Below, in pieces: positions 18,148 to 30,243 of a stretch of DNA of 30,243 nucleotides. The DNA is from an uncultured Clostridia bacterium. Lineage in GTDB: Bacteria; Bacillota; Clostridia; Oscillospirales; Oscillospiraceae. How positions within the stretch are numbered: position 1 is the first letter of the stretch; every line of letters begins with the position of its first letter. The stretch is taken from positions 1-30,243 of the forward strand of contig CAMHRJ010000001.1 in assembly GCA_946187475.1 (NCBI GenBank), given 5' to 3'. The notes under the pieces are model-generated. The model searched no databases. It had not been told where the DNA came from and saw only the letters and a program-made list of their open reading frames with translations. The translations under genes and the position numbers were made by a program.

Positions 18148-19401
18148 TCAGCCGGGGGAGGACGTTTCCTTCCGGTGCTCGATGATCCGGCAGCCGATAT
18201 ACAGCCGTTCAAACGTGTCCTGATCCGTCAGCTCCACACCCATGATCTCCTGGCAGCGCTTGATGCGATACATGGCGGAGTTGCGGTGGATGAAGAGCTT
18301 CGCCGCAGTCTTGGACATGTCGCAGAGGGAAAACAGATAGCAGCACAGGGACTCGTAGAAATTCGTGGAATTCTGCCGGTCAGACTCCAGCAGGGTTTTC
18401 AGCTCCGGGCAGATCAGGTTTTCCGGCAGCAGGTTTCGCGTACCGTTGGCGGCGAGGATCTCGGAATAGAACTGGGAAAACAGGTACCAGCTGCCGCCGC
18501 TCGCGTCCAGAAGACCGTACTGCATGCTGAGCTTCGCCTGCTCCACATAGAGGCTGCGTTTTTCCAGGTCGTCAAACACGTTGCTGACGCCGCAGACGCA
18601 CTCCACCTTGCCGGCGGCCTCCTCCCGGATGGTCTCCAGGATCACCCGGACGGCCTCCCTGCTCTGGATGCTGCGGAAGAACAGCAGGATGGAGTCCTCC
18701 TGATTGGAGTAGATCATGCGGGGATAGTGGGACTTGATGCTGCTGCGCAGATTCTGCAGCTTGCCGCTGACGGGATTGCGCAGGGAAACGGCTATGATCA
18801 CGTACTTGGGGATGATGTTTTCTTCCCGGAAGAACGTGGTGTTTTTTAATAAGGAGAGGGGTGACTCCGTGTCCTCCAGCAGGATCTTGGCCACGTAGGC
18901 CCGCTCCGGCGCGCTGTACTCCTGGCCCTTCTTCCCGGCCAGAAAGATCTCCGCCGCCGTGCGCAGCGCCGCGTTCAGCTCCAGGGCCAGGGCCTCGTTT
19001 TCCGGCGTGGTATAGAGCACCGACGTGATGGCGTCGGGCTTTCCGTCCAGCAGGACGCCGCAGGTGGTTTGGGGAGAATCCTTGGAGATGCCCCAGTCCA
19101 CTTTGAAAGGCTCCGTCTGATCCGAGAGCCGGTCCATATAGCCGTCCTTGTAATATCCGTCGATAACCACCTCCGGCGCGGCGGTCCCGGTCTCAATGAT
19201 GGCCTGCCAGTAGGGGTCCGGACAGGGATCCGGCCCGCCGTAGGCCAGCAGATGATAGGAGATGTCCGTGAGAATCACGGGCAGCCCAAAACTTTCATAC
19301 ACATTTGCATACAGCTGCCGCACATCGTTGCAGCGGGGAAGGGCCTCCAGCACCGTGCGGTAAACATTGGCGGTTTTCGCGGTGATTTCCGGTTCCTTCA
19401 C
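18148..19401 (-). CDS. PucR/CdaR-family transcriptional regulator
   Basis: C-terminal HTH LCCYLFSLCDMSKTAAKLFIHRNSAMYRIKR, a GGDEF-like middle region (CGVSNVFDDL) and a GAF-like N-terminus. Start moved to GTG 19401, 10 nt after AAGGAGG. Confidence 0.9.
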   Translation of the reverse strand: MKEPEITAKTANVYRTVLEALPRCNDVRQLYANVYESFGLPVILTDISYHLLAYGGPDPCPDPYWQAIIETGTAAPEVVIDGYYKDGYMDRLSDQTEPFKVDWGISKDSPQTTCGVLLDGKPDAITSVLYTTPENEALALELNAALRTAAEIFLAGKKGQEYSAPERAYVAKILLEDTESPLSLLKNTTFFREENIIPKYVIIAVSLRNPVSGKLQNLRSSIKSHYPRMIYSNQEDSILLFFRSIQSREAVRVILETIREEAAGKVECVCGVSNVFDDLEKRSLYVEQAKLSMQYGLLDASGGSWYLFSQFYSEILAANGTRNLLPENLICPELKTLLESDRQNSTNFYESLCCYLFSLCDMSKTAAKLFIHRNSAMYRIKRCQEIMGVELTDQDTFERLYIGCRIIEHRKETSSPG

Positions 19402-19454
19402 GGTTCGATCGCCTCCTTGGGGTCGCGCATTTTCCTCCTTTTTCCTACCGCTTA

Positions 19455-19483
19455 AAATTAACACAAGATTTTTCCAATTTCAA
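19455..19483 (-). promoter_or_regulatory. Putative promoter of the PucR-type gene
   Basis: TTGAAA (19483-19478), 17-nt spacer, TGn-TAATTT (19460-19455). Confidence 0.5.
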
Positions 19484-19624
19484 GGGTTTTTCGACGGTTT
19501 TTTTCCGAATCGGCAAATTCGAGGCCCTGAGCGCCTTAGCCGCCTCCTTGTTTATAAATATACCATGTCTCCTATAATTCTTTCGCTAATTAACGCATTT
19601 ATCTTATTATGTCCGTTATTTTTG

Positions 19625-19665
19625 GGCAAACGACAAAAAAGATTTGTTGATTTTTTGGCAAACGA
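19625..19665. promoter_or_regulatory. Direct repeat, candidate regulator binding sites
   Basis: GGCAAACGA at 19625-19633 and 19657-19665, 32 bp apart, both preceded by T runs, in the AT-rich divergent promoter region. Confidence 0.4.
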
Positions 19666-19787
19666 ACATAGCCCAACGTTCTTTTTGCGAATAAAATAAC
19701 AATTGCAAAGGTTACGGTCGGTCTCTGACGAGAGGTTGGCCTCGGAAACAAAACAGCACTCGGATGCATCCCGTTTCTTCGCACGCC

Positions 19788-19825
19788 CCATTCCAATCCA
19801 TTCAATCCATCCAATCCATCTAAAT
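19788..19825 (+). repeat. Four imperfect tandem 9-10-nt repeats just before the MFS RBS
   Basis: CCATTCCAAT / CCATTCAAT / CCATCCAAT / CCATCTAAAT. Confidence 0.8.
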
Positions 19826-19844
19826 GACGAGAGGAGAAAACATC

Positions 19845-21134
19845 ATGCAAAAAAGTGCTCTTGTAAAAAGCTCAAAATATGCATGGATGATCTGCGCGAT
19901 GCTGGTATTGATGCAGTTCATCTACGCAGGCATCACCCTCAGCACGGTCACGCTCTACATGGAGCCGATCCTGGCTGAGCACCCCGGTCTGGCCCGCACG
20001 GCCTACGCACTCACCATCACCATCAACGGCGGCGCAAACGCCATCATGAGCTTCTTCTACGGCAACCTGGTTCAGAAGTTCGGTCTGAAAAAGATGGTCG
20101 CCTTCTGCGCCATCATCATGGTCGCGGGCGTTCTGCTCTACGCAAACGGCACGGCCATGTGGATGTTCTACCTGGGCGCTGCTCTGGAAGGCATCAGCCT
20201 CTGCTTCTGCTCCGGCGCCACCTGCTCGGTCATCTTCTCCCAGTGGTTCAGCAAGAACACCGGCACGCTGCTGTCCCTGACGGCTGTGGGCTCCGGTCTC
20301 GCCGGCGTCATCTTCAGCCCCATCGTGCAGAACTGGATCAACACCATCGGCTGGCAGGGCTCGCTGTACATCAACCTGGCCATGGTCGTCGTCACCGCCG
20401 TCCTGCTCATCATCTTCCTGAAGGAATCCCCCGAGCCCTACGGCGTGAAGCCCATGTGGAACGACCAGGTCAAGATCGCAACAGACGAGGGCAAGATCGT
20501 CCCCTACGGCGTCACCTCCAAGGAGGCTTACAAAACGCCGCAGCTCTGGATCGCCACCTTCGGCGTCGGTCTGCTGGCCCTGATCATCTACGGTTCCATC
20601 ACGAACCTGGCCATCTACTCCTCCGACCTTGGCTACAACCCGGGCACCATGCTCTCCATCATGTATCTGGGCAACATCATCCTGCAGCTGCCCTTCGGCA
20701 TGTTGGCTGATAAGCTGGGCATCCGTCCCTGCATGCTGATTTACGGCATCATGGCTGTAGCCGCCGCCTTCATCTACTCGCTGGCTCCGGCGCAGGGCGT
20801 GTTCATCCTGGGCACGGTTCTGCTGGGCGGCGCCTTCTCCATCCTGAAGGCCACCCTCCCGGTGCTGACCCTGCAGGTCTTCGGCAGCCGCGATCAGGCC
20901 AAGATCATGAGCCCCATGATCGCCGTCATGAACATCGGCGTCGCCTTCGGTACCCCGGTGCTCTCCGCTGCCTATGACATCACCGGCACCTACTCCAAGA
21001 TGTTCGTCCTCTTCGCAGTGGTGGCCGCGGTGCTGACCCTGATGCTGTTCTTCGGTCTGAAGCCCCTGCAGAAGGTCGTCAACCAGAAGAAGGCCGTCGA
21101 GGCCGGCGCCGACAACGTCGACGACATCCAGTGA
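19845..21134 (+). CDS. MFS transporter (OFA/MCT-like)
   Basis: About 12 hydrophobic helices, GNLVQKFGLKK and GMLADKLGIRP loop motifs, QWFSKNTGTLLS. ATG 19845 follows a GAGGAG RBS. Confidence 0.9.
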   Translation: MQKSALVKSSKYAWMICAMLVLMQFIYAGITLSTVTLYMEPILAEHPGLARTAYALTITINGGANAIMSFFYGNLVQKFGLKKMVAFCAIIMVAGVLLYANGTAMWMFYLGAALEGISLCFCSGATCSVIFSQWFSKNTGTLLSLTAVGSGLAGVIFSPIVQNWINTIGWQGSLYINLAMVVVTAVLLIIFLKESPEPYGVKPMWNDQVKIATDEGKIVPYGVTSKEAYKTPQLWIATFGVGLLALIIYGSITNLAIYSSDLGYNPGTMLSIMYLGNIILQLPFGMLADKLGIRPCMLIYGIMAVAAAFIYSLAPAQGVFILGTVLLGGAFSILKATLPVLTLQVFGSRDQAKIMSPMIAVMNIGVAFGTPVLSAAYDITGTYSKMFVLFAVVAAVLTLMLFFGLKPLQKVVNQKKAVEAGADNVDDIQ

Positions 21135-21192
21135 TCTGATCTCTCCGCACGCTGCATACAGAAATTCTCACTCCCCCTTCCCTTTTTCCTCC

Positions 21193-21235
21193 CCTTCACG
21201 CGCATTCGGCCGAAATCCCCGGATGCGTGTGAAGG
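21193..21235 (+). other. Long intergenic RNA stem-loop without a U tract
   Basis: 17-bp stem CCTTCACGCGCATTCGG / CCGGATGCGTGTGAAGG with two G-U pairs on the + strand and a 9-nt loop. Confidence 0.65.
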
Positions 21236-21283
21236 AACCCCCCGAAGGCTGAACGTATTTTGATATAAAGGAGCTTGATTTAC

Positions 21284-23236
21284 ATGGAAAAACGCGATTA
21301 CAGTCCGCTGTTTACCCCCTTTAAGATCGGCAGCATGGAGGTCAAGAACCGCATCGTTCTCTCCCCCATGGGCCATAACGCCTCCCTGCCCTACGGCGCC
21401 AAGGCCGAATCCGAGATCGCCTACTACGAAGAGCGCGCCCGCGGCGGCGTGGGTCTGATCATGACCGGCTGCACCAACATCGACAAGGTCACCGCCCAGG
21501 GCTCCCACGAGGGTCTGCTGGACACCGACCTGGGCATTCCCTCCTTCACCTCTCTGTGTGAGCGCGTCCACCGCTGGGGCGCCAAGATCGGCCTGCAGGT
21601 CACTCCGGGCACCGGCCGCAACGGTTTCCCCAATGAGTTCGGCGATCCTCCGATCTCCGCCTCCGCCATCCCCAGCTTCTTCAATCCCGACGTGATCTGC
21701 CGCGCGCTGACCGTGGAGGAGATCCACGACATCGTGGAGCTCTTCGGACCCGCTGCTCTGGTGGCCCGGGATGCAGGCTTCGACTGCATCGAGGTCCACG
21801 CCCACGCCGGCTACCTCATCGACCAGTTCATGTCCACCTGCTTCAACCACCGCACCGACGAGTACGGCGGCAGCGCCGAGAACCGCACCCGCTTCGCCCG
21901 GGAGATCGTGGCAAAGATCCACGAGACCGTGCCCGGCATGCCGGTCCTGTTCCGCATCGCTCTGGACCACGGCTTCGAGGGCGGCCGAACCTTCGAGGAG
22001 AGCAAGGAAATCCTTGCCTGGCTCCAGAAGGCCGGCATTGACGCCTTCGACGTGGACGCCGGCTCCTACGAGCGTCTGGACTACATCTTCCCGCCCTCCT
22101 ATCAGGGCCCGGCCTGCATGCAGTACGTCTGCGACACCGCCCGCGAGGTTCTGGACGTTCCCGTCCTGAACGGCGGTACCCACGATCCCGACACCGCGCT
22201 GGATCTGATCACCTCCGGCAAGGCGGACTTCGCCGTCATCGGCCGCGCGCTGATCGCCGATCCCGAGCTGCCCCTCAAGCTGATGGAAGGCCGCCGCGAG
22301 GACGTCCGTCCCTGCCTGCGCTGCAACGAGGACTGCATCGGCCGCATCTGGAACCGCCGCACCCGCATGGGCTGCTCCGTGAACACCCGCGTGGGCGAGG
22401 AGGAACACTTCAAGATCGAAAAGACCTGCTGCCCGAAGAACGTGGTCGTCATCGGCGCCGGCCCCGCAGGCTGCGAGGCTGCCCGCGTGGCCGCTCTGGA
22501 AGGCCACAAGGTCACCCTGTTTGAGAAGGAAGGCCGCATCGGCGGCACCGCCCGCACCATCGCCACCTCCTCCTTCAAAAACTACATCCGCGCCCTGTTC
22601 GACTGGTACGAAGTGCAGCTGGACAAGCTGGGCATCGACCTGCGTCTGAACACCGAGATTTCCGCCGACGATCCGATCCTGGCCGAGGCCGACCACATCT
22701 TCGTCACCGGCGGCACCGAGCCTGTGGTTCCCCCGATTCCGGGTCTGGACCGCGAGGACATCTACAGCATGCTGGAGATCCACAAGGATCACAGCCTGGT
22801 CAAGGGCGACAAGATCGTCGTCTGCGGCGGCGGCGAGTCCGGCTGCGACGGCGGCTACGAGCTGGCCCTGGACTACGGCAAGCAGGTCACCATCGTGGAG
22901 ATGGCCGACATCCTCGCTCAGGACGCCATGTTCATCAACCGCGACTGCATCGTGGCCAAGATGGGCAAGCTGGGTGTGCGCATGATGACCAAGACCAAGG
23001 TTCTGGAGATCAAGGACGAGGGCGTCTTGGTTCAGAAGGAAGACGGCAGCACCGAGATTCTGGAAGCCGACTGCGTCATCAACGCCCTGGGCATGCGCCC
23101 GAAGATGGACATGGTCGACGCCGTCAAGGCCAAGTATCCCGTGAAGACCGTCGCCATGGGCGACAGCGCCAAGATGGGCAAGATCGGCACGGCCGTCCGC
23201 TCCGGCTTCTTCGCCGCGATGAGCATCGACCGCTGA
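21284..23236 (+). CDS. FMN/FAD/[4Fe-4S] NADH:flavin oxidoreductase (OYE-like ene-reductase of the FadH / 2-enoate reductase / BaiCD-BaiH superfamily)
   Basis: TIM barrel KNRIVLSPM, YYEERARGGVGLI, EVHAHAGYLIDQF, RTDEYGGS..NRTRF. Fe-S motif CLRCNEDC...CSVN. Two Rossmann motifs, VIGAGPAG and VCGGGESG. Confidence 0.92.
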   Translation: MEKRDYSPLFTPFKIGSMEVKNRIVLSPMGHNASLPYGAKAESEIAYYEERARGGVGLIMTGCTNIDKVTAQGSHEGLLDTDLGIPSFTSLCERVHRWGAKIGLQVTPGTGRNGFPNEFGDPPISASAIPSFFNPDVICRALTVEEIHDIVELFGPAALVARDAGFDCIEVHAHAGYLIDQFMSTCFNHRTDEYGGSAENRTRFAREIVAKIHETVPGMPVLFRIALDHGFEGGRTFEESKEILAWLQKAGIDAFDVDAGSYERLDYIFPPSYQGPACMQYVCDTAREVLDVPVLNGGTHDPDTALDLITSGKADFAVIGRALIADPELPLKLMEGRREDVRPCLRCNEDCIGRIWNRRTRMGCSVNTRVGEEEHFKIEKTCCPKNVVVIGAGPAGCEAARVAALEGHKVTLFEKEGRIGGTARTIATSSFKNYIRALFDWYEVQLDKLGIDLRLNTEISADDPILAEADHIFVTGGTEPVVPPIPGLDREDIYSMLEIHKDHSLVKGDKIVVCGGGESGCDGGYELALDYGKQVTIVEMADILAQDAMFINRDCIVAKMGKLGVRMMTKTKVLEIKDEGVLVQKEDGSTEILEADCVINALGMRPKMDMVDAVKAKYPVKTVAMGDSAKMGKIGTAVRSGFFAAMSIDR

Positions 23237-23274
23237 GAAGCATCCGATCACCGTAAATAACAGGAGGTTTTATC

Positions 23275-23781
23275 ATGGCAGAGTTCAAGCTGAACAAATT
23301 CAAATATGAGCATATCTTCTCCTATGTGGTTGAGGTCGATCCCAACATGTTCTTCCAGAAGCTGCCCAACAAGCAGACCCGCATCACCGGCAACATCACC
23401 GGCGGCAAGGTCTGGGGCCCGAAGATCAACGGCAAGATCCTCCCCATGGGTGCCGACTGGTCGGTCCTTCATCCGCACGGCGTCGTCGACGTCGACTGCC
23501 GCGCCATGATCGAGACGGACGACGGTGCGCACATCAATATGTTCTACACCGGCCGCATCGATCTGGGCAGCGAAGAGGCCGCTGTGGACTACGCCAACGG
23601 CAAGCTCCCGCCCATCATGGGCACCCAGCCCATCCACATCCTGGACACCGACGATCCGCGCTATGAGTGGGTCAACCGCGTGAGTTGCTTCTGCATCGGC
23701 CGCGTCGACTTCACCGGCGATCCGATCTCCATCCAGTATGATGTGTACGCTTTCCGCGCTCTGCTGACGGACGAGGACTGA
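23275..23781 (+). CDS. DUF3237 (UPF0311)-like beta-barrel protein of unknown function
   Basis: ITGGKVWGPKINGKILPMGADW, DVDCRAMIETDDGAHI and DDPRYEWVNR patterns. CAGGAGG RBS. Confidence 0.8.
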   Translation: MAEFKLNKFKYEHIFSYVVEVDPNMFFQKLPNKQTRITGNITGGKVWGPKINGKILPMGADWSVLHPHGVVDVDCRAMIETDDGAHINMFYTGRIDLGSEEAAVDYANGKLPPIMGTQPIHILDTDDPRYEWVNRVSCFCIGRVDFTGDPISIQYDVYAFRALLTDED

Positions 23782-23822
23782 GCCCTAAAGCGAAACCCGT
23801 CGCGTGATCCCATCTGAATCGC

Positions 23823-23855
23823 AGCGGCGGCGTTGACAAAATGCCGCCGCTTTTT
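23823..23855 (+). terminator. Intrinsic terminator inside the co-directional cluster
   Basis: AGCGGCGGCGTT-gacaa-AATGCCGCCGCT followed by TTTT. Confidence 0.75.
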
Positions 23856-23901
23856 CAAAAACCGAATCCCCCTGTGCAGCAGGGGTGAAAGGAGCAATAT
23901 T

Positions 23902-24657
23902 ATGTTTGATCTTCACGGCAGAGTTGCTGTTGTTACCGGCGCATCTGGCGGCCTGGGCCGCCAGTTCGCGCTGGCTCTGGCCGGTCAGGGCGCCGACGTG
24001 GTGCTGCTGGCCCGCCGGATGGAAAAGCTGGAGGCCGTCGCGGAGGAGGTTCGCGCCAAGGGCGTGAAGGCTCTTCCCGTCAAGTGCGACGTGTGCTCCG
24101 TGGACGATATCAAAGCCGCGGTCAAGGCCACCATCGACAACTTCGGCAAGGTGGACATTCTGGTGAACAACGCCGGCGGCGGCCCGCTGTATCCCATCAT
24201 GGAGACGCCGGACGATTTCTGGCAGCACGGCGTGGATCTGGAGCTCAGCGGTGTGTTCTACTGCATCCGTGAGTTCGGCCGCGAGATGGTGAAGGCCGGC
24301 TACGGCCGCATCATCAACAACTCCTCCCTCTTTGGCCGTATCGGCACGGGCTTTATCCCCATCTCCAATTACTGCGCGGTCAAGGGCGGCGTGGTGAACC
24401 TGACCCGCGAGGTGGCGGCGGAGCTGTGCAAGCACGGCATCACCTGCAACTGCGTGTGCCCGGGCTTCTTCCCCTCCGAGTCCAACAACCCCGAGGCCAT
24501 GGAGGCCATGGGCCCCTGGATCAACTCCCGCGTGCCCATGGGCCGCGCCGGCGTGGACGGCGAGCTGGACTCCACCATCATCTATCTGGCGGCGGACGAG
24601 TCCTCCTACGTCAACGGCGCCATCATCTCCTGCGACGGCGGCTGGACCGCCGTGTAA
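23902..24657 (+). CDS. Classical SDR oxidoreductase (gluconate-5-dehydrogenase/FabG-like, probably NADP(H))
   Basis: TGASGGLG, LARR, NNAG, catalytic Ser (NSS) and YxxxK (YCAVK), NCVCPG. ATG 23902 after AAGGAG. Confidence 0.92.
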   Translation: MFDLHGRVAVVTGASGGLGRQFALALAGQGADVVLLARRMEKLEAVAEEVRAKGVKALPVKCDVCSVDDIKAAVKATIDNFGKVDILVNNAGGGPLYPIMETPDDFWQHGVDLELSGVFYCIREFGREMVKAGYGRIINNSSLFGRIGTGFIPISNYCAVKGGVVNLTREVAAELCKHGITCNCVCPGFFPSESNNPEAMEAMGPWINSRVPMGRAGVDGELDSTIIYLAADESSYVNGAIISCDGGWTAV

Positions 24658-24706
24658 GGACACCCGTTTCCGAATGTGAAATCGATTCTTGCGAAAGGAG
24701 TATATT

Positions 24707-25504
24707 ATGGATCTCAAACTGAAAGATAAAGTCGTTCTCATCAACGGCGCGACCGGCGGCCTGGGCAGAGCGGTCTGCTTCGCGCTGAAGGCCGAGGGCG
24801 CCAAGATCGCCCTCTCCGGCCGTGATCCCGAAAAGGTTGCCGCACTGGCGACCGAGCTGGATCTGGGTCCCGACAGACTCTGGACCAACATTGCTGACGT
24901 GACCGTGGAAGAGCAGGTCAAGGCCTATGTGGACGGCGCCATCGAGCACTTTGGCCACATCGACATCGTTCTGCCCAATGCCGGCTATGAGGGCAAGTGG
25001 GAGTTCAACGACCAGCTGACCAAGGAGAACTTCGACAAGGTCTTCAGCATCAACGTCCTGGGCGTGATGTTCATGCTGAAATACGGCGGCGCCGCTCTGG
25101 CGGCCCAGGGCTCCGGCTCCATCGTCATCACCTCCTCCATCGGCGGCGTGGTCGGCAGCCCCGGCATGGCCATCTACTGCGCCTCCAAGCACGCGGTGCA
25201 GGGACTTATGAAGTCCGCCGCCCGCGAGCTGGGTCCCAAGGGCGTCAGCGTCAAGAGCATCAACCCCGACGGCATCTACACCCCCATGCTCTCCCGCATC
25301 GGCAAAAACGCCCTGGGCGACAGCATGACCGAGGAAGAGCGTCTCGCCGCGCTGACCGCCGGCACCTATGACAAGCGCGCTGCCACCCCCGAGGAAGTGG
25401 CTTACCTGATCCTCTATTACGCCTCCCCCTGGGCACAGCACATCTACGGCTCCAAGGTCGTCATCGACGGCGCCAACGGCGACGGCGACACGGTTCGCCC
25501 GTAA
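24707..25504 (+). CDS. Classical SDR oxidoreductase (levodione reductase / hydroxysteroid dehydrogenase-like)
   Basis: NGATGGLG, PNAGYEG, TSSIGG, YCASK and SINPDG. ATG 24707 after AAGGAG. Confidence 0.9.
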   Translation: MDLKLKDKVVLINGATGGLGRAVCFALKAEGAKIALSGRDPEKVAALATELDLGPDRLWTNIADVTVEEQVKAYVDGAIEHFGHIDIVLPNAGYEGKWEFNDQLTKENFDKVFSINVLGVMFMLKYGGAALAAQGSGSIVITSSIGGVVGSPGMAIYCASKHAVQGLMKSAARELGPKGVSVKSINPDGIYTPMLSRIGKNALGDSMTEEERLAALTAGTYDKRAATPEEVAYLILYYASPWAQHIYGSKVVIDGANGDGDTVRP

Positions 25505-25537: not shown

Positions 25538-25570
25538 AAACGGCACACCCAAATGGGTGTGCCGTTCTTT
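25538..25570. repeat. Palindromic REP-like element / bidirectional terminator, copy 2
   Basis: AAACGGCACACCC-aaat-GGGTGTGCCGTTCTTT. The arms equal the reverse complement of the 11091-11123 element. Confidence 0.8.
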
Positions 25571-25623: not shown

Positions 25624-25908
25624 TTACCAGGTGAATTTCTCAATTTCCACGCCGTCGCAGAACTGCGCCTTGCATTCCTGCAGCTGCGCGAATTTCTCCG
25701 TTTGGCAGTGCGCCTGCTGGAGCTCCGGCGTGGTCCACGTCTCTACCAGCAGCAAATCGTCCGGCGCTTCGGCCGCAAAGTAATAGTCGTAGCGGCAGTT
25801 GCCGTCCTCCGCTCTGGAGTTTGCCCGGACGCCAAGCGCGCAAAGCGCCTGATAGAAAGCGTCTCTCTGCCCCGGCTTGCAGTGATAGGTCACATTCCAT
25901 GTCAGCAT
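25624..25908 (-). CDS. ABM-family (putative quinol monooxygenase) small protein
   Basis: 94 aa with KPGQRDAF, SRAEDGNCRYD and LLLVETW...QAH, the dimeric alpha-beta barrel pattern. Confidence 0.85.
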   Translation of the reverse strand: MLTWNVTYHCKPGQRDAFYQALCALGVRANSRAEDGNCRYDYYFAAEAPDDLLLVETWTTPELQQAHCQTEKFAQLQECKAQFCDGVEIEKFTW

Positions 25909-25932: not shown

Positions 25933-26952
25933 TTATTTTCCGAAGCCGCAGTTGGGCCACATACACTTCTCACAGCTGAGACACAGCCCGCCGTGTCCGA
26001 GCTTCTTCAGATCCCGCTTCGTCACGCGGACGCCCGCCGCGATGCGCGGGAGCATCAGGTCAAAGATCGTGGTTTTGGCATACATGACGCAGCCCGGCAG
26101 CCCCATGACGGGCGTGCCGTCATCAAAATAGCCCAGCAGGAACATTGCCCCCGGCAGCACCGGGGCGCCGTAGGTGACAATCTCGCAGCCGGTGGCCTTG
26201 ATCGCGCCGGGCGTGCGGTCGTCCGGGTCGACGCTCATGCCGCCCGTGCAGAGCACCATGTCCACGCCCGCGGCATGGTAGTCCAGAACCGCCTGTGTGA
26301 TGGCGTCCATATCGTCGCCGGGCGTGCAGTGATGCGTCACCTCAATGCCGAACCGCCGGAGCTTGCGGATGATCACAGGCGTGAAGGCGTCCTCGATGAG
26401 GCCCTTGGCGACCTCGTTTCCGGTCGTGACAAGGCCAGCGGTTTTGAGTCTGTACGGCAGCAGCTCCAGCAGAGGCTTGTCGCCGCAGACAGTCTCCGCC
26501 TCGCGCAGCTGATCTTCCGCAATGACCAGCGGGATCACGCGCATGCCCGCGAGCTTGTCTCCCGCTTTTACGGGCGTGTTTCCGTGGCGCGTCGCGATCA
26601 TGAGCTCATCGAGACTGTTCACAGCCTCCAGCCGCTCGACGTCCACGCGAAAGAGCCCGTCGAATTCCGCGGTCAGCTCGATCTTGCCCTCCTTGGGGGC
26701 GCTGGCGCGCATACCGTCGCTCTGGCACAGCGCGCGCAGGCGCTCCGCCGCCTCGTCCTCGTGGAGCATGTCCTCGGACTTCTCCCAGACATACAGCGAC
26801 TCCTTGCCCATGCTCAGGAGCACCGGGATGTCCTCTGTAGTTACAACGTGGCCCTTGCGGAAGCGGGCGTCCTTCGTCACGCCGGGGATGATCTGCGTCA
26901 TGTCATAACACAGCACATGGCCGACGGCATCGACGGTTTTGACCAGTTTCAT
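25933..26952 (-). CDS. Molybdopterin-binding protein (MoeA/MogA-like domain)
   Basis: DAVGHVLCYDMT, FRKGHV, LVTTGNEV, LCTGGMSVDPDDRTP, YGAPVLPGAM and MGLPGC. The start overlaps the radical SAM stop (ATGA). Confidence 0.85.
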   Translation of the reverse strand: MKLVKTVDAVGHVLCYDMTQIIPGVTKDARFRKGHVVTTEDIPVLLSMGKESLYVWEKSEDMLHEDEAAERLRALCQSDGMRASAPKEGKIELTAEFDGLFRVDVERLEAVNSLDELMIATRHGNTPVKAGDKLAGMRVIPLVIAEDQLREAETVCGDKPLLELLPYRLKTAGLVTTGNEVAKGLIEDAFTPVIIRKLRRFGIEVTHHCTPGDDMDAITQAVLDYHAAGVDMVLCTGGMSVDPDDRTPGAIKATGCEIVTYGAPVLPGAMFLLGYFDDGTPVMGLPGCVMYAKTTIFDLMLPRIAAGVRVTKRDLKKLGHGGLCLSCEKCMWPNCGFGK

Positions 26953-28238
26953 TCCAAATCACCTCTTGCCGTTATTGGCGTCAGATAGTTTGCGCAAAAC
27001 GGCACGATCGCGCCGTCGCGGTAGACATGCAGCGTGCACTGGCGCAGTCGCTCGACGTTCAGATTCATCGCGTCCTGAAACGCCATGGCCGAGAGCGTGA
27101 GGCTCTGCTGGCGCAGGCGGTAGAGAAAAGCGTCGAAGTCCATCTCGCCGGAAAGATCCGGCTGCGGCTCGTCCGGCGCGCGCCGCCAGTGATTGGCCAC
27201 ATAGGCTCGATTGTCCATGGCTGTCCCTCTGGATCTGGAGGCGTGCTGAAATCTGGCAAGCGGCCGCAGGCTGCCGTTTTCCTCCAGCAGGAACGCCGAA
27301 TGAAACCCGCACAGCGGATGGTCGCACCGCGATGGGAGGAATGCGTCCGCGGGGATTCCTGCCTGCTCGCTGAGATCCGCCATGAGCCGGTCCAGCGTAT
27401 AGCGCGTCTCCGGCGCTTCATCATGCCGCCCGAAGTAGCTCACAGGCTGGAAATGCACGCCGCGCACGGCGGGAACGTGATCACGCGCAAAACGGACTAT
27501 CTCTCCGAGGGCGTGGTCGTTCACGCCTGGTACCACCGTCGGCACAAGGGTGACGCCGATACGGAGCTGATCGCAGACGCGGATCGCCTCCGTCTTCTCC
27601 TTCAGCAGCGGCTTACCGCGCAGGGTCTCATAAATCCCGTCATCCACCCCGTCGAACTGCAGAAACACGATGTCGAGCCCCGCCTCTGCAAGTCGGGCCG
27701 CGTAGTCCGGCTCCGCAGCCAGACGCAGCCCGTTGGTGTTCAGCTGCACACAGCTGCAGCCCGCTTTTTTCGCATAGCGGACAAGGCGGGGCAGATCGTC
27801 GCGCAGGGTCGGCTCCCCGCCGGAGAGCTGCAGCAGCACCGGGCCGGATTTTTCCACAATGTCCGCGATCGCGGCCTCGAGTTCCTCCGCCGTCGGGTCA
27901 TTTTCCGCACTCCCGCCGTTGGCAAAGCAGAAGCGGCAGCGCAGATCGCACCGGCGCGTCACCTCCAGCAGCACGCAGCAGCTCCCGGCCTGATGATCGC
28001 CGCAGAGGCCGCAGTTTTCCGGGCAGCGCTGCCCCTCCCCCGCCTCCATCGGCGGTTCAGAGAGCAGCCACGAATCGAAGTCCGTTTTTCCTTGCCAGAC
28101 AAGGGTGCGGAATTCTCCATGCTCCGGACAGGCTTTTTCTAAATACACACGCCCGTCGTCTTCTTGAAACAGCGCGGCGGAGAGGTTTTTCAGGCAGACC
28201 GGGCAGACGGAGCGTGTGGAACGAATGAGGGCTCCCAT
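26949..28238 (-). CDS. Radical SAM protein of the MJ0619/TrsS-like group (extra N-terminal Cys clusters)
   Basis: CxxxCxxC (CDLRCRFC), QLSGGEPT, QLNTNG, LQFDG and FQPVSYFGR. Additional SVCPVC, CPEHG, CPENCGLC and C-terminal C...PFC motifs. Confidence 0.8.
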   Translation of the reverse strand: MGALIRSTRSVCPVCLKNLSAALFQEDDGRVYLEKACPEHGEFRTLVWQGKTDFDSWLLSEPPMEAGEGQRCPENCGLCGDHQAGSCCVLLEVTRRCDLRCRFCFANGGSAENDPTAEELEAAIADIVEKSGPVLLQLSGGEPTLRDDLPRLVRYAKKAGCSCVQLNTNGLRLAAEPDYAARLAEAGLDIVFLQFDGVDDGIYETLRGKPLLKEKTEAIRVCDQLRIGVTLVPTVVPGVNDHALGEIVRFARDHVPAVRGVHFQPVSYFGRHDEAPETRYTLDRLMADLSEQAGIPADAFLPSRCDHPLCGFHSAFLLEENGSLRPLARFQHASRSRGTAMDNRAYVANHWRRAPDEPQPDLSGEMDFDAFLYRLRQQSLTLSAMAFQDAMNLNVERLRQCTLHVYRDGAIVPFCANYLTPITARGDLE

Positions 28239-28239
28239 G

Positions 28240-29256
28240 TCATTCCCCCATGCCGAAGCTTTCCCGCTTGTGTACCGTGACCTCCAGCTGAAAGCGGTCA
28301 GAGACGGTCTGCTCCGCGCGGGCGATTATGGCGTCCAAAAGCTTTGCCTCGCACGCTGCCGTCGCGTTGATAATGACGGCAAGCTCCGTACACCGGCGCG
28401 CAAAGGGCCTCGTGATCTCCAGCTGCTGTCCGCTCAGCCAGTCCACCTTGCCGTAGTCCCCATCCGGCGTCCAGGCCAGGAGTTTCAAATGCGGGATGCG
28501 CACGGGATTGACCGTGATCTCCTGGGCCAGTTCGCGCAGATACGCCGTGCCGTCAAAATCGAAGCAGCAGACGCGAGCATAATACTGATAATATGCCTCG
28601 CTGAGGCTCCCCATTTCACTTTGGAGCGGGTCACCGTCATAGTCGATCTCCGGGTGCCGCATGGAGGCGCTGCCCTCGTGAAGTGCACGGCAGAGATCGT
28701 CGATCCCGTCGCCCCTGCGGGCGCTGACCGGGATCACCTCCGCCTTGGGATAGCATTCCGAGAGAGAAGCACAGGTCTCGGCAATCTCCTCCGGCGCAAG
28801 CAGATCGCATTTGTTCAGCACGATGAGATCCGCCTCTCGCAGTTGGGAGTCCTGAATGTGCGCCATGTCGCCCCCTGCGCGCAGCTCTTTAATCGTTGCG
28901 GGCTCGATCAGCACCGTGAAGGGCGCGAAATCCAGCTTTCCTGCGAGGCCGTGGTAGACGTGCTCCAGCGCGCCGACGCCGAAACCCGGAATGTCCGACA
29001 CCACGAGTGTGCGCCCCTCTTGAAACCGCGCCTCCACCGTTTCGATCAGCCGGTCGTGGCAGAAGCAGATGCACGCGTCCGTGATCTGATCGGCGCTGCA
29101 GCCGGAGAGCTTGGCAAAGCGATGATCTGCCAGCTCCACGCCTTCACCCAGATCGTTGGAGATCATGGCGACCGTGGGGTCGTGCTTCGCGAGCGCCATC
29201 ATAACGGTGGTCTTTCCCGCGCCGAGAAAGCCGCTGATGACCGCAAATTTGGGCAT
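28240..29256 (-). CDS. CobW/HypB/UreG-like (G3E) P-loop GTPase, putative metallochaperone
   Basis: Walker A GFLGAGKT, ISND, Cys motif CICFC and G4 NKCD. Start moved from 29391 to ATG 29256 (GAGAGGGAAG RBS). Confidence 0.8.
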   Translation of the reverse strand: MPKFAVISGFLGAGKTTVMMALAKHDPTVAMISNDLGEGVELADHRFAKLSGCSADQITDACICFCHDRLIETVEARFQEGRTLVVSDIPGFGVGALEHVYHGLAGKLDFAPFTVLIEPATIKELRAGGDMAHIQDSQLREADLIVLNKCDLLAPEEIAETCASLSECYPKAEVIPVSARRGDGIDDLCRALHEGSASMRHPEIDYDGDPLQSEMGSLSEAYYQYYARVCCFDFDGTAYLRELAQEITVNPVRIPHLKLLAWTPDGDYGKVDWLSGQQLEITRPFARRCTELAVIINATAACEAKLLDAIIARAEQTVSDRFQLEVTVHKRESFGMGE

Positions 29257-29275
29257 ATTCTTCCCTCTTTCTCTC

Positions 29276-30243
29276 TTATCTTCCGCTGCGCTCGGCGCGG
29301 AGCGCAATGAGCTGTGCCGCAATGGAAATTGCGATCTCCTCCGGGGTCTCCGCCCGGATGCTGAGGCCGATGGGCGACGTGACGCGCTCAAAATCCGCGT
29401 CAGTGAAGCCGTATTCCTCCTTCAGCCGCGCCGTGACCCCGGCAATCTTTCGCCGACTGCCGATGACGCCGATGTAGCAGGCGGGGCTCATCATCGCCTG
29501 GGCCTGCACCACGCTGTCGAAGGCGTGGCCGCGGGTCATGACGCAGATATAATCCTCCGGCGTGATCGTAACGGAGGCGGCAAGGTTCGTAAAGTCAATG
29601 AGGCGCACGTCCTCCGCATCCGGGAACAGCTCCCTCTTTGCAAACTCCGGCCGATCGTCCATGGCGACGCAGCGAAAGCCCACGCCCGCCAGCACCGGCA
29701 CCAGCGCCTGCGCCACATGGCCGCAGCCGAAAACCAGAACCCGGCCGGAGCTTTGAATTTGCTCCACATAGAAATCGCGCCCAGCCAGTTCTTCCCGCAT
29801 GGGCTTGCGGCGCATGGCGTCCCGAAGCTCATCTGGCGCATGGATGCCCACAAATCCCCGCGCTCTGGTGTACAACCCCAGACATCCCCCAGCGGAGAGC
29901 TCGGAGATCAGCCAGAGGTCGTGACCCTCAGCGAAAAGCGTCTCCGCTTCCTCCGCGAGAGCGAGCACACTTTCATCGCCCGCTTCGAGGAAGTGGAAAA
30001 ACACCTGCACGTCGCCGCCGCAGATCATGCCGAGATCCTGCACATCGTTTTTGGAGAGCAGGAAGCTCTGCTCGCAGCTTTTTCTGCTCTGCAGCACCTC
30101 CTGTGCCAGCTGCTCGGAGCGGTATTCCACCGCGCCGCCGCCGATGGTGCCGCAGATGCGGCCGGATTTGGAAATGAGCATTCTGGAGCCCGCGCCACGA
30201 GGCGTAGAGCCGGAGGAAGCCACCACCGTGACGAGCACGAGAT
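29276..30243 (-). CDS. xdhC: XdhC/CoxI-family molybdenum-cofactor maturation protein, 5' end outside the window
   Basis: SGSTPRGAGSRM, GTIGGG, GMICGG, FGCGHVA, VMTRGH, GVIGSRRK and SPIGL..AETPEEIAISI. Confidence 0.9.
   Translation of the reverse strand, partial: LVLVTVVASSGSTPRGAGSRMLISKSGRICGTIGGGAVEYRSEQLAQEVLQSRKSCEQSFLLSKNDVQDLGMICGGDVQVFFHFLEAGDESVLALAEEAETLFAEGHDLWLISELSAGGCLGLYTRARGFVGIHAPDELRDAMRRKPMREELAGRDFYVEQIQSSGRVLVFGCGHVAQALVPVLAGVGFRCVAMDDRPEFAKRELFPDAEDVRLIDFTNLAASVTITPEDYICVMTRGHAFDSVVQAQAMMSPACYIGVIGSRRKIAGVTARLKEEYGFTDADFERVTSPIGLSIRAETPEEIAISIAAQLIALRAERSGR

Follow-up and report, generated by a model that had tools for sequence, protein, structure and literature searches.

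A DUF3237 protein and an Fe-S flavoenzyme form the conserved unit of a PucR-linked gene cluster in an uncultured Oscillospiraceae bacterium

What kind of molecule is handled by a gene cluster that joins a transporter, a reductase and two dehydrogenases to a DUF3237 protein, and which of these genes belong together? We address this question for a 30,243-nucleotide stretch of DNA from an uncultured Clostridia bacterium of the Oscillospiraceae (GenBank assembly GCA_946187475.1, contig CAMHRJ010000001.1), hereafter the window, which has a G+C content of about 62% and is the entire contig C1 of a 2.19-Mb metagenome-assembled genome (MAG) that is 80% complete. Six cluster genes were confirmed by Pfam, and together with their coordinates this bears out the arrangement given in a preliminary description of the DNA, namely a PucR-type regulator gene on the minus strand that is divergent from five co-directional plus-strand genes, encoding a major facilitator superfamily (MFS) transporter, an Fe-S flavoenzyme ene-reductase (hereafter the reductase), a DUF3237 (PF11578) beta-barrel protein and two short-chain dehydrogenases/reductases (SDR1 and SDR2; Table 1). 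That description took the five genes for a complete uptake-and-modify pathway of an orphan kind. We establish below the domain content and cofactor motifs of the encoded proteins, their conserved linkage, and a pairing of DUF3237 with the reductase that is specific to one clade. What stands of the earlier view is a conserved and apparently inducible uptake-and-reduce cluster, but its conserved unit is smaller than five genes: it consists of DUF3237 and the Fe-S flavoenzyme, usually with a divergent PucR gene, and the MFS transporter and dehydrogenases are exchangeable between lineages.

The conserved pair and its gene neighbourhoods

We aligned 22 DUF3237 relatives (alignment A1) and scanned the alignment against a metagenome collection, which gave 41 loci, all of them mapped by tblastn with the window proteins and their neighbouring genes assigned by Pfam. 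In this gene-neighbourhood survey, which the preliminary description had proposed, the two core genes proved to be conserved together, with an Fe-S flavoenzyme adjoining DUF3237 in 34 of the 36 informative loci (34 of 41 in total, as five were too short or too weak and two were without it). The 34 take in locus L038, whose contig covers just the C-terminal part of the reductase, and L065, where a remnant of DUF3237 is left. Four layouts recur. The order of the window (type A) recurs, apart from the window itself, in four contigs, two from ruminant MAGs and two from metagenomes, and the public contigs closest to the window are the ruminant Oscillospiraceae/Ruminococcaceae MAGs RUI408 and RUG11848. 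In type B, PucR is divergent from MFS, reductase, two DUF3237 genes (a and b), SDR1 and SDR2; we found this layout in one genome (G128) and about 20 contigs, several of which are labelled human gut metagenome, and its proteins are 75-76% (reductase), about 70% (MFS), 84-89% (SDR1) and 81-84% (SDR2) identical to those of the window. The tandem DUF3237 paralogues of type B (L015:10058-11030 and L043-L063) have 41-44% (a) and 22-28% (b) identity to the window protein. The type B reductase is the 90%-identity cluster P0006 with 745 member sequences, so that the label 'orphan' has to be given up for a gene set whose close variant is common in human-gut assemblies. Type C is shorter, with PucR divergent from DUF3237 (65-79% identity) and a reductase (56-63%) and no dehydrogenase, and comprises about ten loci of 40-59% G+C, one of which encodes a reductase 99.7% identical to a protein of Enterococcus sp. 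669A. DUF3237 precedes the reductase in type C and follows it in types A and B. Type D (L037) has the order DUF3237, zinc-dependent alcohol dehydrogenase (Zn-ADH), SDR1-like gene and reductase, and L065 has the same layout with a decayed DUF3237 gene between Zn-ADH and reductase (L065:7773-7935), which has lost about 80 codons and survives as two fragments that lie out of frame with each other. The L065 reductase is 80% identical to a Clostridium scindens protein, and since this closest locus holds a remnant only, our earlier assumption of an intact DUF3237 gene beside the 646-residue C. scindens homologue was dropped and no such gene is claimed for that species.

One locus replaces the reductase altogether. 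At L035:4-4683 a DUF3237 gene (65% identity) lies between a Zn-ADH gene and a gene for a 563-residue FAD_binding_2 flavoprotein, with a LysR regulator and no Fe-S flavoenzyme, as if a different family of C=C reductase had been recruited beside the same DUF3237 subfamily. In a maximum-likelihood tree of 40 reductases the DUF3237-linked enzymes form one clade. Its sister group consists of two genome loci (L018 and L024) with an SDR1-like gene, reductase, MFS, Zn-ADH and PucR and no DUF3237, and the outermost clade, whose genomes lack DUF3237, has unrelated gene neighbours. Moreover, among ten other genomes with a reductase homologue, DUF3237 is adjacent in G128 only; eight have no PF11578, and G097 has a distant copy on another contig. 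PF11578 was found in 4 of 400 sampled Bacillota genomes, with the copies in unrelated contexts. The reductase itself is rare and patchy in whole genomes, occurring in 5 of 150 of the same family, neither of two of the same genus and 6 of 398 of the same class. Because the same order recurs in independent contigs of other bacteria, the gene arrangement is beyond chance. The operon is best explained as an accessory and horizontally scattered element.

In G128 and its closest kin a gene resembling the D component of 2-hydroxyglutaryl-CoA dehydratase and a 542-residue gene come after the operon (L015:13317-16138). These HgdD-like genes were considered as cluster members and rejected, being absent after the operon in the other type B lineages.

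The residues of the window's reductase are numbered here from the open reading frame (ORF) beginning at TTG 21275, and 3 is to be subtracted for the protein that starts at ATG 21284. It matches PF00724 (Oxidored_FMN; 1.6e-67, residues 12-341) and PF07992 (Pyr_redox_2; 6.1e-28, residues 389-618), with 2-naphthoyl-CoA reductase (PDB ID 6qkg, 1e-83) and FadH (1ps9, 1e-73) as best PDB matches. Cys347-x2-Cys350-x3-Cys354-x12-Cys367 aligns with the 4Fe-4S cluster cysteines of FadH, the Cys-x2-Cys-x3-Cys-x11-15-Cys motif by which the Fe-S flavoenzyme superfamily is recognised is present in all 120 homologues listed, and GxGxxG motifs are found at 394 and 518. These domains, the cysteine motif and the GxGxxG motifs therefore identify it as a self-contained Fe-S flavoenzyme, in which, by analogy with FadH, electrons would run from NAD(P)H through FAD and the 4Fe-4S cluster to FMN. 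The motif H175-A-H177-A-G-Y180 is invariant in the same 120 homologues and across all related loci with identities as low as 50%, whereas FadH has G-S-E-G-Y at this site. The reductase scores 387.5 bits with the BaiCD model of NCBIfam (NF041087, cut-off 825 bits), its second-best model there, and 414.2 bits with that of the long-form bilirubin reductase BilR (NF045599, cut-off 750 bits), and thus lies far below both cut-offs. Its close homologues range from 96 to 72% identity and are followed by a large set at 56-61% that includes C. scindens, Sellimonas, Ruminococcus and Enterococcus names. BaiP of C. scindens was considered as the window enzyme and rejected, as it is a 563-residue protein of another family.

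The DUF3237 protein is a clear member of its family, with a Pfam score of 97.5 bits against a cut-off of 24. Its AlphaFold model (pLDDT 94.9) was matched by Foldseek to the DUF3237 structures 3g7g, 4pux, 3c5o and 9m2z and to PhnH (6jjs/6jjt), with template-modelling (TM) scores of up to 0.79/0.88 for 3g7g and a probability of 1.00 for 4pux, 3c5o, 9m2z and 6jjs; remoter likenesses are to dirigent pterocarpan synthases, allene oxide cyclase and barrel Diels-Alderases. Six polar residues (R36, R76, Y91, D96, D156 and Y158) are invariant in the DUF3237 alignment, even in a paralogue of 25% identity, and are kept by both tandem paralogues of type B, which suggests an active site. A look-up in the Protein Atlas returned nothing beyond the label 'DUF3237'. 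The chemistry of the family is known from aerobes and a fungus. PhcF and PhcG of Sphingobium SYK-6 are enantiocomplementary cofactor-free decarboxylases that open a dihydrobenzofuran ring to give a stilbene, for which quinone-methide intermediates have been proposed; PinX, like PhcF and PhcG a sphingomonad enzyme of lignin-dimer breakdown, decarboxylates lariciresinoate with opening of the furan; and fungal PhnH carries out an intramolecular hydroalkoxylation, the reverse type of reaction. All of these characterised enzymes form or consume alkenes without cofactors, and in aerobes dioxygenases cleave the products of PhcF/PhcG and PinX. The published DUF3237 enzyme work found in our literature search includes none on anaerobes or Fe-S flavoenzymes, and the same search found no description of this cluster or of the DUF3237/Fe-S flavoenzyme pairing. 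The claim that the cluster supplies a functional context for DUF3237 can thus be kept in narrower form: with PhcF/PhcG, PinX and PhnH already characterised the context is not the first for the family, but it is a new, anaerobic one, and the first such setting in which DUF3237 is coupled to a reductase.

A proposed uptake-and-reduce pathway

From the conserved pair and the known chemistry of DUF3237 enzymes we infer an order of steps, a catalytic role for DUF3237 and a class of substrate. In our best explanation the operon takes up a small organic molecule in free form rather than as a coenzyme A (CoA) thioester, and converts it by reduction in the cytoplasm; we give this explanation, taken as a whole from import through the alkene step at DUF3237 and saturation by the flavoenzyme to adjustment by the SDRs, about an even chance of being right. 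The operon would probably be switched on by the divergent PucR-type activator, and the MFS transporter would import the free substrate. By opening a ring, removing a carboxyl group or isomerising the substrate, DUF3237, most likely a cofactor-free lyase, isomerase or decarboxylase, would then form or reposition an activated C=C bond (of enone, styrene or quinone-methide type), and the flavoenzyme would saturate the alkene so made. SDR1 (NADPH-type) and SDR2 (similar to cyclic-ketone reductases) would turn hydroxyl into keto groups or the reverse, either ahead of the reduction or following it, a task that may fall to an SDR and a Zn-ADH elsewhere. Reduction would be the natural anaerobic fate of an alkene that aerobes cleave with dioxygenases. 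The substrate is most likely diet- or plant-derived and met in both the rumen and the human colon, examples being cyclic enone acids, phenolic O-heterocycles and molecules akin to lignans or flavonoids.

Support for the pairing comes from the FAD_binding_2 reductase that stands next to DUF3237 in L035, from the monophyly of the DUF3237-linked reductases, and from the confinement of the adjacency to G128 among the ten genomes. A free substrate is consistent with the gene content, as neither a CoA ligase nor a CoA transferase was found in or beside the cluster when the window and flanks were searched with Pfam and NCBIfam, in agreement with what had been described before.

The dehydrogenases fit the proposed pathway in different ways. 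SDR1 (numbered from the ORF start at 23833) has the classical SDR motifs TGASGGLG, NNAG at 112 and Y180-x3-K184, and its best PDB relatives are of the FabG and gluconate 5-dehydrogenase types. It carries Arg-Arg after beta-2, a feature that in SDRs points to NADP(H), and is probably NADP(H)-dependent. Its homologues beside the reductase, in types A, B and D as well as the sister clade, have 42-89% identity. SDR2 (numbered from 24689) has the variants NGATGGLG and PNAG together with Y163-x3-K167, and was counted as a classical SDR; its conservation (81-87% identity) is confined to types A and B, with Zn-ADH filling the second dehydrogenase slot elsewhere. Its best PDB match is levodione reductase of Corynebacterium aquaticum (1iy8), aligned over the full length at 2e-40, with the next match eight orders of magnitude weaker (5e-32). 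Levodione reductase reduces the cyclic diketone that results from enone reduction by an old yellow enzyme (OYE), so that its substrate is made by just such a reduction, which supports the proposed pathway. However, the two enzymes differ after beta-2, with Asp (NADH type) in levodione reductase and Gly-Arg in SDR2, and levodione reductase comes from an aerobic actinobacterium; they represent a related subfamily and are not orthologues.

The transporter is presumed to import the pathway substrate, and resembles the oxalate/formate-monocarboxylate type; its best NCBIfam models are the L-lactate transporter SfMCT, a conjugated bile-salt MFS and an oxalate/formate antiporter, all of them below cut-off. 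An orthologue (about 70% identity) occurs in type B loci only, and is swapped or missing elsewhere. In the RUI408 contig the genes for reductase, DUF3237, SDR1 and SDR2 are preceded by a further Fe-S flavoenzyme gene, truncated where the contig ends, and by another MFS gene of 27% identity (L001:11-1159).

A narrower version of the proposal, which we advance only tentatively and think rather unlikely as stated, is that DUF3237 and the Fe-S flavoenzyme make up a two-enzyme anaerobic module that first opens or decarboxylates a ring compound and then reduces it. Here the barrel would generate an alkene or quinone methide by opening a phenolic O-heterocycle or a benzylic ether or carboxylate of the lignan, neolignan, flavonoid or isoflavonoid type, and the flavoenzyme would trap this product by reduction. 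Such a module would be the anaerobic counterpart of the sphingomonad routes from PhcF/PhcG or PinX to a dioxygenase, common in the human gut (type B) and also present in the rumen, and the tandem DUF3237 paralogues of type B would handle opposite stereoisomers.

Several observations weigh against the proposed pathway. The decay of DUF3237 in the L065 lineage shows that the reductase can persist without it, and the sister and outgroup reductases sit in other gene contexts. The loci of types A to C were ascertained through DUF3237, so the adjacency counts run in one direction, and many of the type B contigs are near-identical kin, leaving about five distinct lineages. The carboxylate-type likeness of the MFS transporter is weak and under the NCBIfam cut-offs. 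The DUF3237 protein of the window is just 14-26% identical to solved members of its family, and a search for DUF3237 fused to a reductase, or in longer proteins, found none, which is weak evidence.

Alternative explanations and known systems

The reductase belongs to the superfamily of FadH, BaiCD, BaiH, BilR, DZNR, OsrA-B and IsmB, whose gene clusters in gut anaerobes were surveyed by Pascal Andreu et al. 2020 (PMC7371122); most of its clades are uncharacterised and many of the clusters carry an MFS transporter. Similar to these, the window encodes a three-part reductase (OYE-like FMN domain, 4Fe-4S cluster and FAD/NAD(P)H domain), MFS and SDR genes are often nearby, and the distribution is patchy at strain level. 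Unlike them, the reductase of the window has the H-x-H-x-x-Y motif, falls below the BaiCD and BilR cut-offs and has a constant DUF3237 partner. The cluster is thus one of the known Fe-S flavoenzyme catabolic clusters, with the constant DUF3237 partner as its distinguishing feature.

Among these relatives are steroid-converting enzymes, and a steroid or bile-acid A-ring pathway parallel to OsrABC, IsmA/IsmB or BaiA/BaiCD is accordingly one alternative, though in our judgement an unlikely one. An SDR would oxidise the 3-hydroxyl, DUF3237 would act in the manner of a ketosteroid isomerase (delta-5 to delta-4), the flavoenzyme would be a 5-beta (or delta-1/delta-6) reductase and the other SDR would re-reduce the 3-ketone, and this logic of oxidising, reducing the C=C bond and re-reducing suits a cluster with two dehydrogenases. 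The gut Fe-S flavoenzymes BaiCD, BaiH, OsrA, OsrB and IsmB do act on 3-oxo-steroid enones alongside SDRs, BaiCD is the second-best NCBIfam model for our reductase, the MFS transporter has a weak likeness to the conjugated bile-salt MFS, and C. scindens has reductase homologues at 59% identity. Similar to the cluster, OsrABC and IsmA/IsmB combine an Fe-S flavoenzyme C=C reductase with SDR-type hydroxysteroid dehydrogenases acting on a free substrate, but their genes are clustered neither together nor with DUF3237. The details of the enzyme also disagree: 387 bits is far from the BaiCD cut-off of 825, and H-x-H-x-x-Y stands in place of the H-x-x-H-x-Y of IsmB and BaiCD. As compared by its published description, IsmB (H206-x-x-H209-x-Y211) is also longer at its N terminus, its cluster cysteines beginning at residue 386. 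The presence of the cluster in ruminant MAGs and Enterococcus, the type C loci without a dehydrogenase, and the lack of any steroid among the substrates of characterised DUF3237 enzymes argue further against a steroid. Nor does the gene set correspond to the bai operon, as had been noted before: that operon has a CoA ligase, a CoA transferase and a dehydratase, and BaiB, BaiF and the 7-alpha-dehydratase BaiE are all absent here.

A second alternative concerns DUF3237 alone, which need not form an alkene and might instead be a non-catalytic carrier or chaperone of a hydrophobic substrate, or an epimerase or racemase acting after the reduction as DDRC does in equol formation. We consider this improbable as well. 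Ligand binding is frequent among small closed barrels, equol formation combines an Fe-S flavoenzyme and a small racemase, the position of DUF3237 varies (5' of the reductase in type C, 3' in types A and B), and the tandem paralogues of type B could serve two stereoisomers; but all characterised DUF3237 members are catalysts, and the six polar residues are invariant even in the 25%-identical paralogue. The equol operon itself is not matched, just as the preliminary description had it, for THDR and racemase genes are absent from the cluster: by Pfam it contains no FAD_binding_2-type reductase and no racemase-like gene such as accompany DZNR and DHDR in the equol cluster, where THDR is the FAD_binding_2-type reductase and DDRC is glyoxalase-like.

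For the alkene-forming role that we prefer for DUF3237, the closest comparisons are with PhcF/PhcG and PinX, made here by description, and with PhnH. The window protein shares their Pfam family and fold, and these enzymes open or close an O-heterocycle and in doing so make or use up a C=C bond adjacent to a phenol. The tandem DUF3237 pair of type B recalls PhcF and PhcG, which are likewise adjacent paralogues and are enantiocomplementary. In the aerobic routes of PhcF/PhcG and PinX, however, a dioxygenase cleaves the alkene, whereas the partner of DUF3237 in the window is an anaerobic ene-reductase. A similar logic, in which an alkene is exposed without cofactors and then reduced by a flavin enzyme, would link the proposed pathway by analogy to chalcone isomerase with enoate reductase (Fcr/ERED) in Eubacterium ramulus and Flavonifractor plautii. 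Lactobacilli follow the same scheme of an exposed alkene and its subsequent reduction with phenolic acid decarboxylase and vinylphenol reductase. In the Fcr/ERED and vinylphenol routes, though, the lyase and isomerase folds are unrelated to DUF3237, and the window cluster has no phloretin hydrolase.

Saturation of an oxo- or hydroxy-fatty acid is a third alternative and one that we regard as quite unlikely. It would resemble the Lactobacillus CLA-DH / CLA-DC / CLA-ER pathway of conjugated linoleic acid (CLA) metabolism, reportedly worked out by Kishino and colleagues in 2013, with the free carboxylate entering through a monocarboxylate-type MFS transporter, an SDR giving a keto fatty acid, DUF3237 a conjugated enone, the flavoenzyme reducing it and the second SDR restoring the hydroxyl. 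The sequence of dehydrogenase, isomerase, enone reductase and dehydrogenase fits, as do the absence of CoA activation, the resemblance of the MFS to monocarboxylate transporters, the rumen and gut setting, and the action of the superfamily archetype FadH on dienoyl fatty acyl chains; yet the cluster has no fatty-acid hydratase, the closest solved relative of SDR2 is a cyclic-ketone reductase, and the characterised DUF3237 enzymes act on aromatic compounds. That the genes are chance neighbours, or two unrelated units (MFS-reductase-DUF3237 and SDR1-SDR2) split by the terminator-like hairpin between DUF3237 and SDR1, is highly improbable, since despite this hairpin and the type C loci without SDRs, SDR1 homologues accompany reductases of this clade in types A, B and D, and those of the sister group at L018 and L024, in different bacterial families, and the identity between types A and B is higher for SDR1 and SDR2 (81-89%) than for the reductase (75%).

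The wider interest of the pair lies in the Fe-S flavoenzymes themselves: few enzyme families of gut Clostridia have expanded as much or are as poorly understood, and the cases solved so far (bile acids, bilirubin, equol, steroid hormones and coprostanol) all matter for host physiology. One clade of these reductases is now defined by a testable signature, with DUF3237 as constant partner, PucR as activator and dehydrogenases alongside, and, with a close variant widespread in human-gut assemblies, the enzyme pair offers an entry point to a new transformation of a diet- or host-derived compound. If the substrate should be a lignan, flavonoid or similar molecule, the module would fill a known gap in the polyphenol metabolism of gut and rumen.

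Gene map, control region and flanking genes

Reading of the upstream sequence showed that the longest-ORF starts lie too early in five genes, and the starts were reset to codons preceded by a ribosome-binding site (RBS): GTG 19401 for PucR and ATG 19845, 21284, 23902 and 24707 for MFS, reductase, SDR1 and SDR2, respectively. The corrected lengths of reductase, SDR1 and SDR2 match those of their closest homologues (650, 252 and 265 residues). With these starts an AGGAG-like RBS is found 6-10 nt 5' of each plus-strand gene, so the strong RBSs ascribed to the cluster hold once the five starts are corrected; that of the MFS gene reads GAGAGGAG, and AAGGAGG precedes the PucR gene. The gaps between the plus-strand genes are 149, 38, 120 and 49 nt.

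Table 1. Positions in the window of the cluster genes, the control region and the RNA hairpins
Feature	Position	Strand	Basis
PucR/CdaR-family regulator	likely 18148..19401, ORF to 19464	-	GGDEF_2 + C-terminal HTH_30 (Pfam)
Divergent control region, AT-rich, 443 nt	19402..19844	.	repeats, promoter-like site
MFS transporter	19845..21134 (longest ORF from 19824)	+	Pfam MFS_1
RNA hairpin, no U-tract	21193..21235	+	folding vs shuffles
Fe-S flavoenzyme ene-reductase, 650 aa	21284..23236 (ORF from TTG 21275)	+	Pfam Oxidored_FMN + Pyr_redox_2
DUF3237 (PF11578) beta-barrel protein, 168 aa	23275..23781	+	Pfam
Terminator-like hairpin between DUF3237 and SDR1	23823..23857	+	12-bp GC-rich stem then UUUUU
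SDR1, 251 aa	23902..24657 (longest ORF from 23833)	+	Pfam adh_short
SDR2, 265 aa	24707..25504 (longest ORF from 24689)	+	Pfam adh_short
Operon-end hairpin	25538..25567	.	12-13 bp stem, between convergent genes

The regulator is a PucR/CdaR-family protein by both of its domains, PF13556 (helix-turn-helix, HTH; 56.1 bits) and PF17853 (GGDEF-like; 25.5 bits), which score above their cut-offs, and is far below the cut-offs of the NCBIfam equivalogs AdeR, CdaR and PmfR. Divergent homologues (24-47% identity) accompany the sister clade as well as types A, B and C, and because this linkage is conserved we infer that PucR controls the operon. The control region contains two 16-nt direct repeats, ATTTTT(G/T)GGCAAACGA, at 19618-19633 and 19650-19665, 32 nt apart, which are a candidate PucR operator, and a sigma-70-like site at 19551-19578. 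In the human-gut loci of type B a similar TTTTGGCGAAAYG box lies directly 5' of a TTGAAC-17-GATAAA-like promoter, so that an operator-like box beside the promoter is common to types A and B; its placement is typical of an activator site, and the box may act as one. In the window, about 25 nt upstream of the MFS RBS, three head-to-tail copies of the 9-nt unit TCCAATCCAT with a one-base overlap are found at 19792-19819.

Three hairpins fold more stably than shuffled sequences. The one between the MFS and reductase genes reaches -33.4 kcal/mol (z = -6.1) and may serve in RNA processing, stability or attenuation. The region of the hairpin between DUF3237 and SDR1 gives -31 kcal/mol (z = -3.1), and this hairpin may terminate transcription in part, so that core and SDR genes would be expressed at different levels. 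The hairpin after SDR2 (-28 kcal/mol, z = -4.3) could terminate transcription in both directions. An Rfam scan of the window returned no riboswitch and no other RNA family.

The cluster is flanked by ABC exporters upstream and by an ABM-domain gene and a TrsS radical-SAM (S-adenosylmethionine) group downstream. The former of the two downstream elements encodes a 94-residue protein resembling antibiotic biosynthesis monooxygenases (25624-25908, minus strand), is convergent with SDR2 and shares the end hairpin; it was considered as a cluster member and rejected, since its adjacency to the cluster is not kept in relatives. Beyond it, at 25933-29391 on the minus strand, three co-directional genes encode a MoCF_biosynth-domain protein, a radical SAM protein whose 516 bits exceed the 490-bit NCBIfam cut-off of the TrsS (seleno)protein, and a CobW-like GTPase matched weakly by 'CobW-related selenoprotein', a trio that looks like a Trs-type selenium-associated radical-SAM system.

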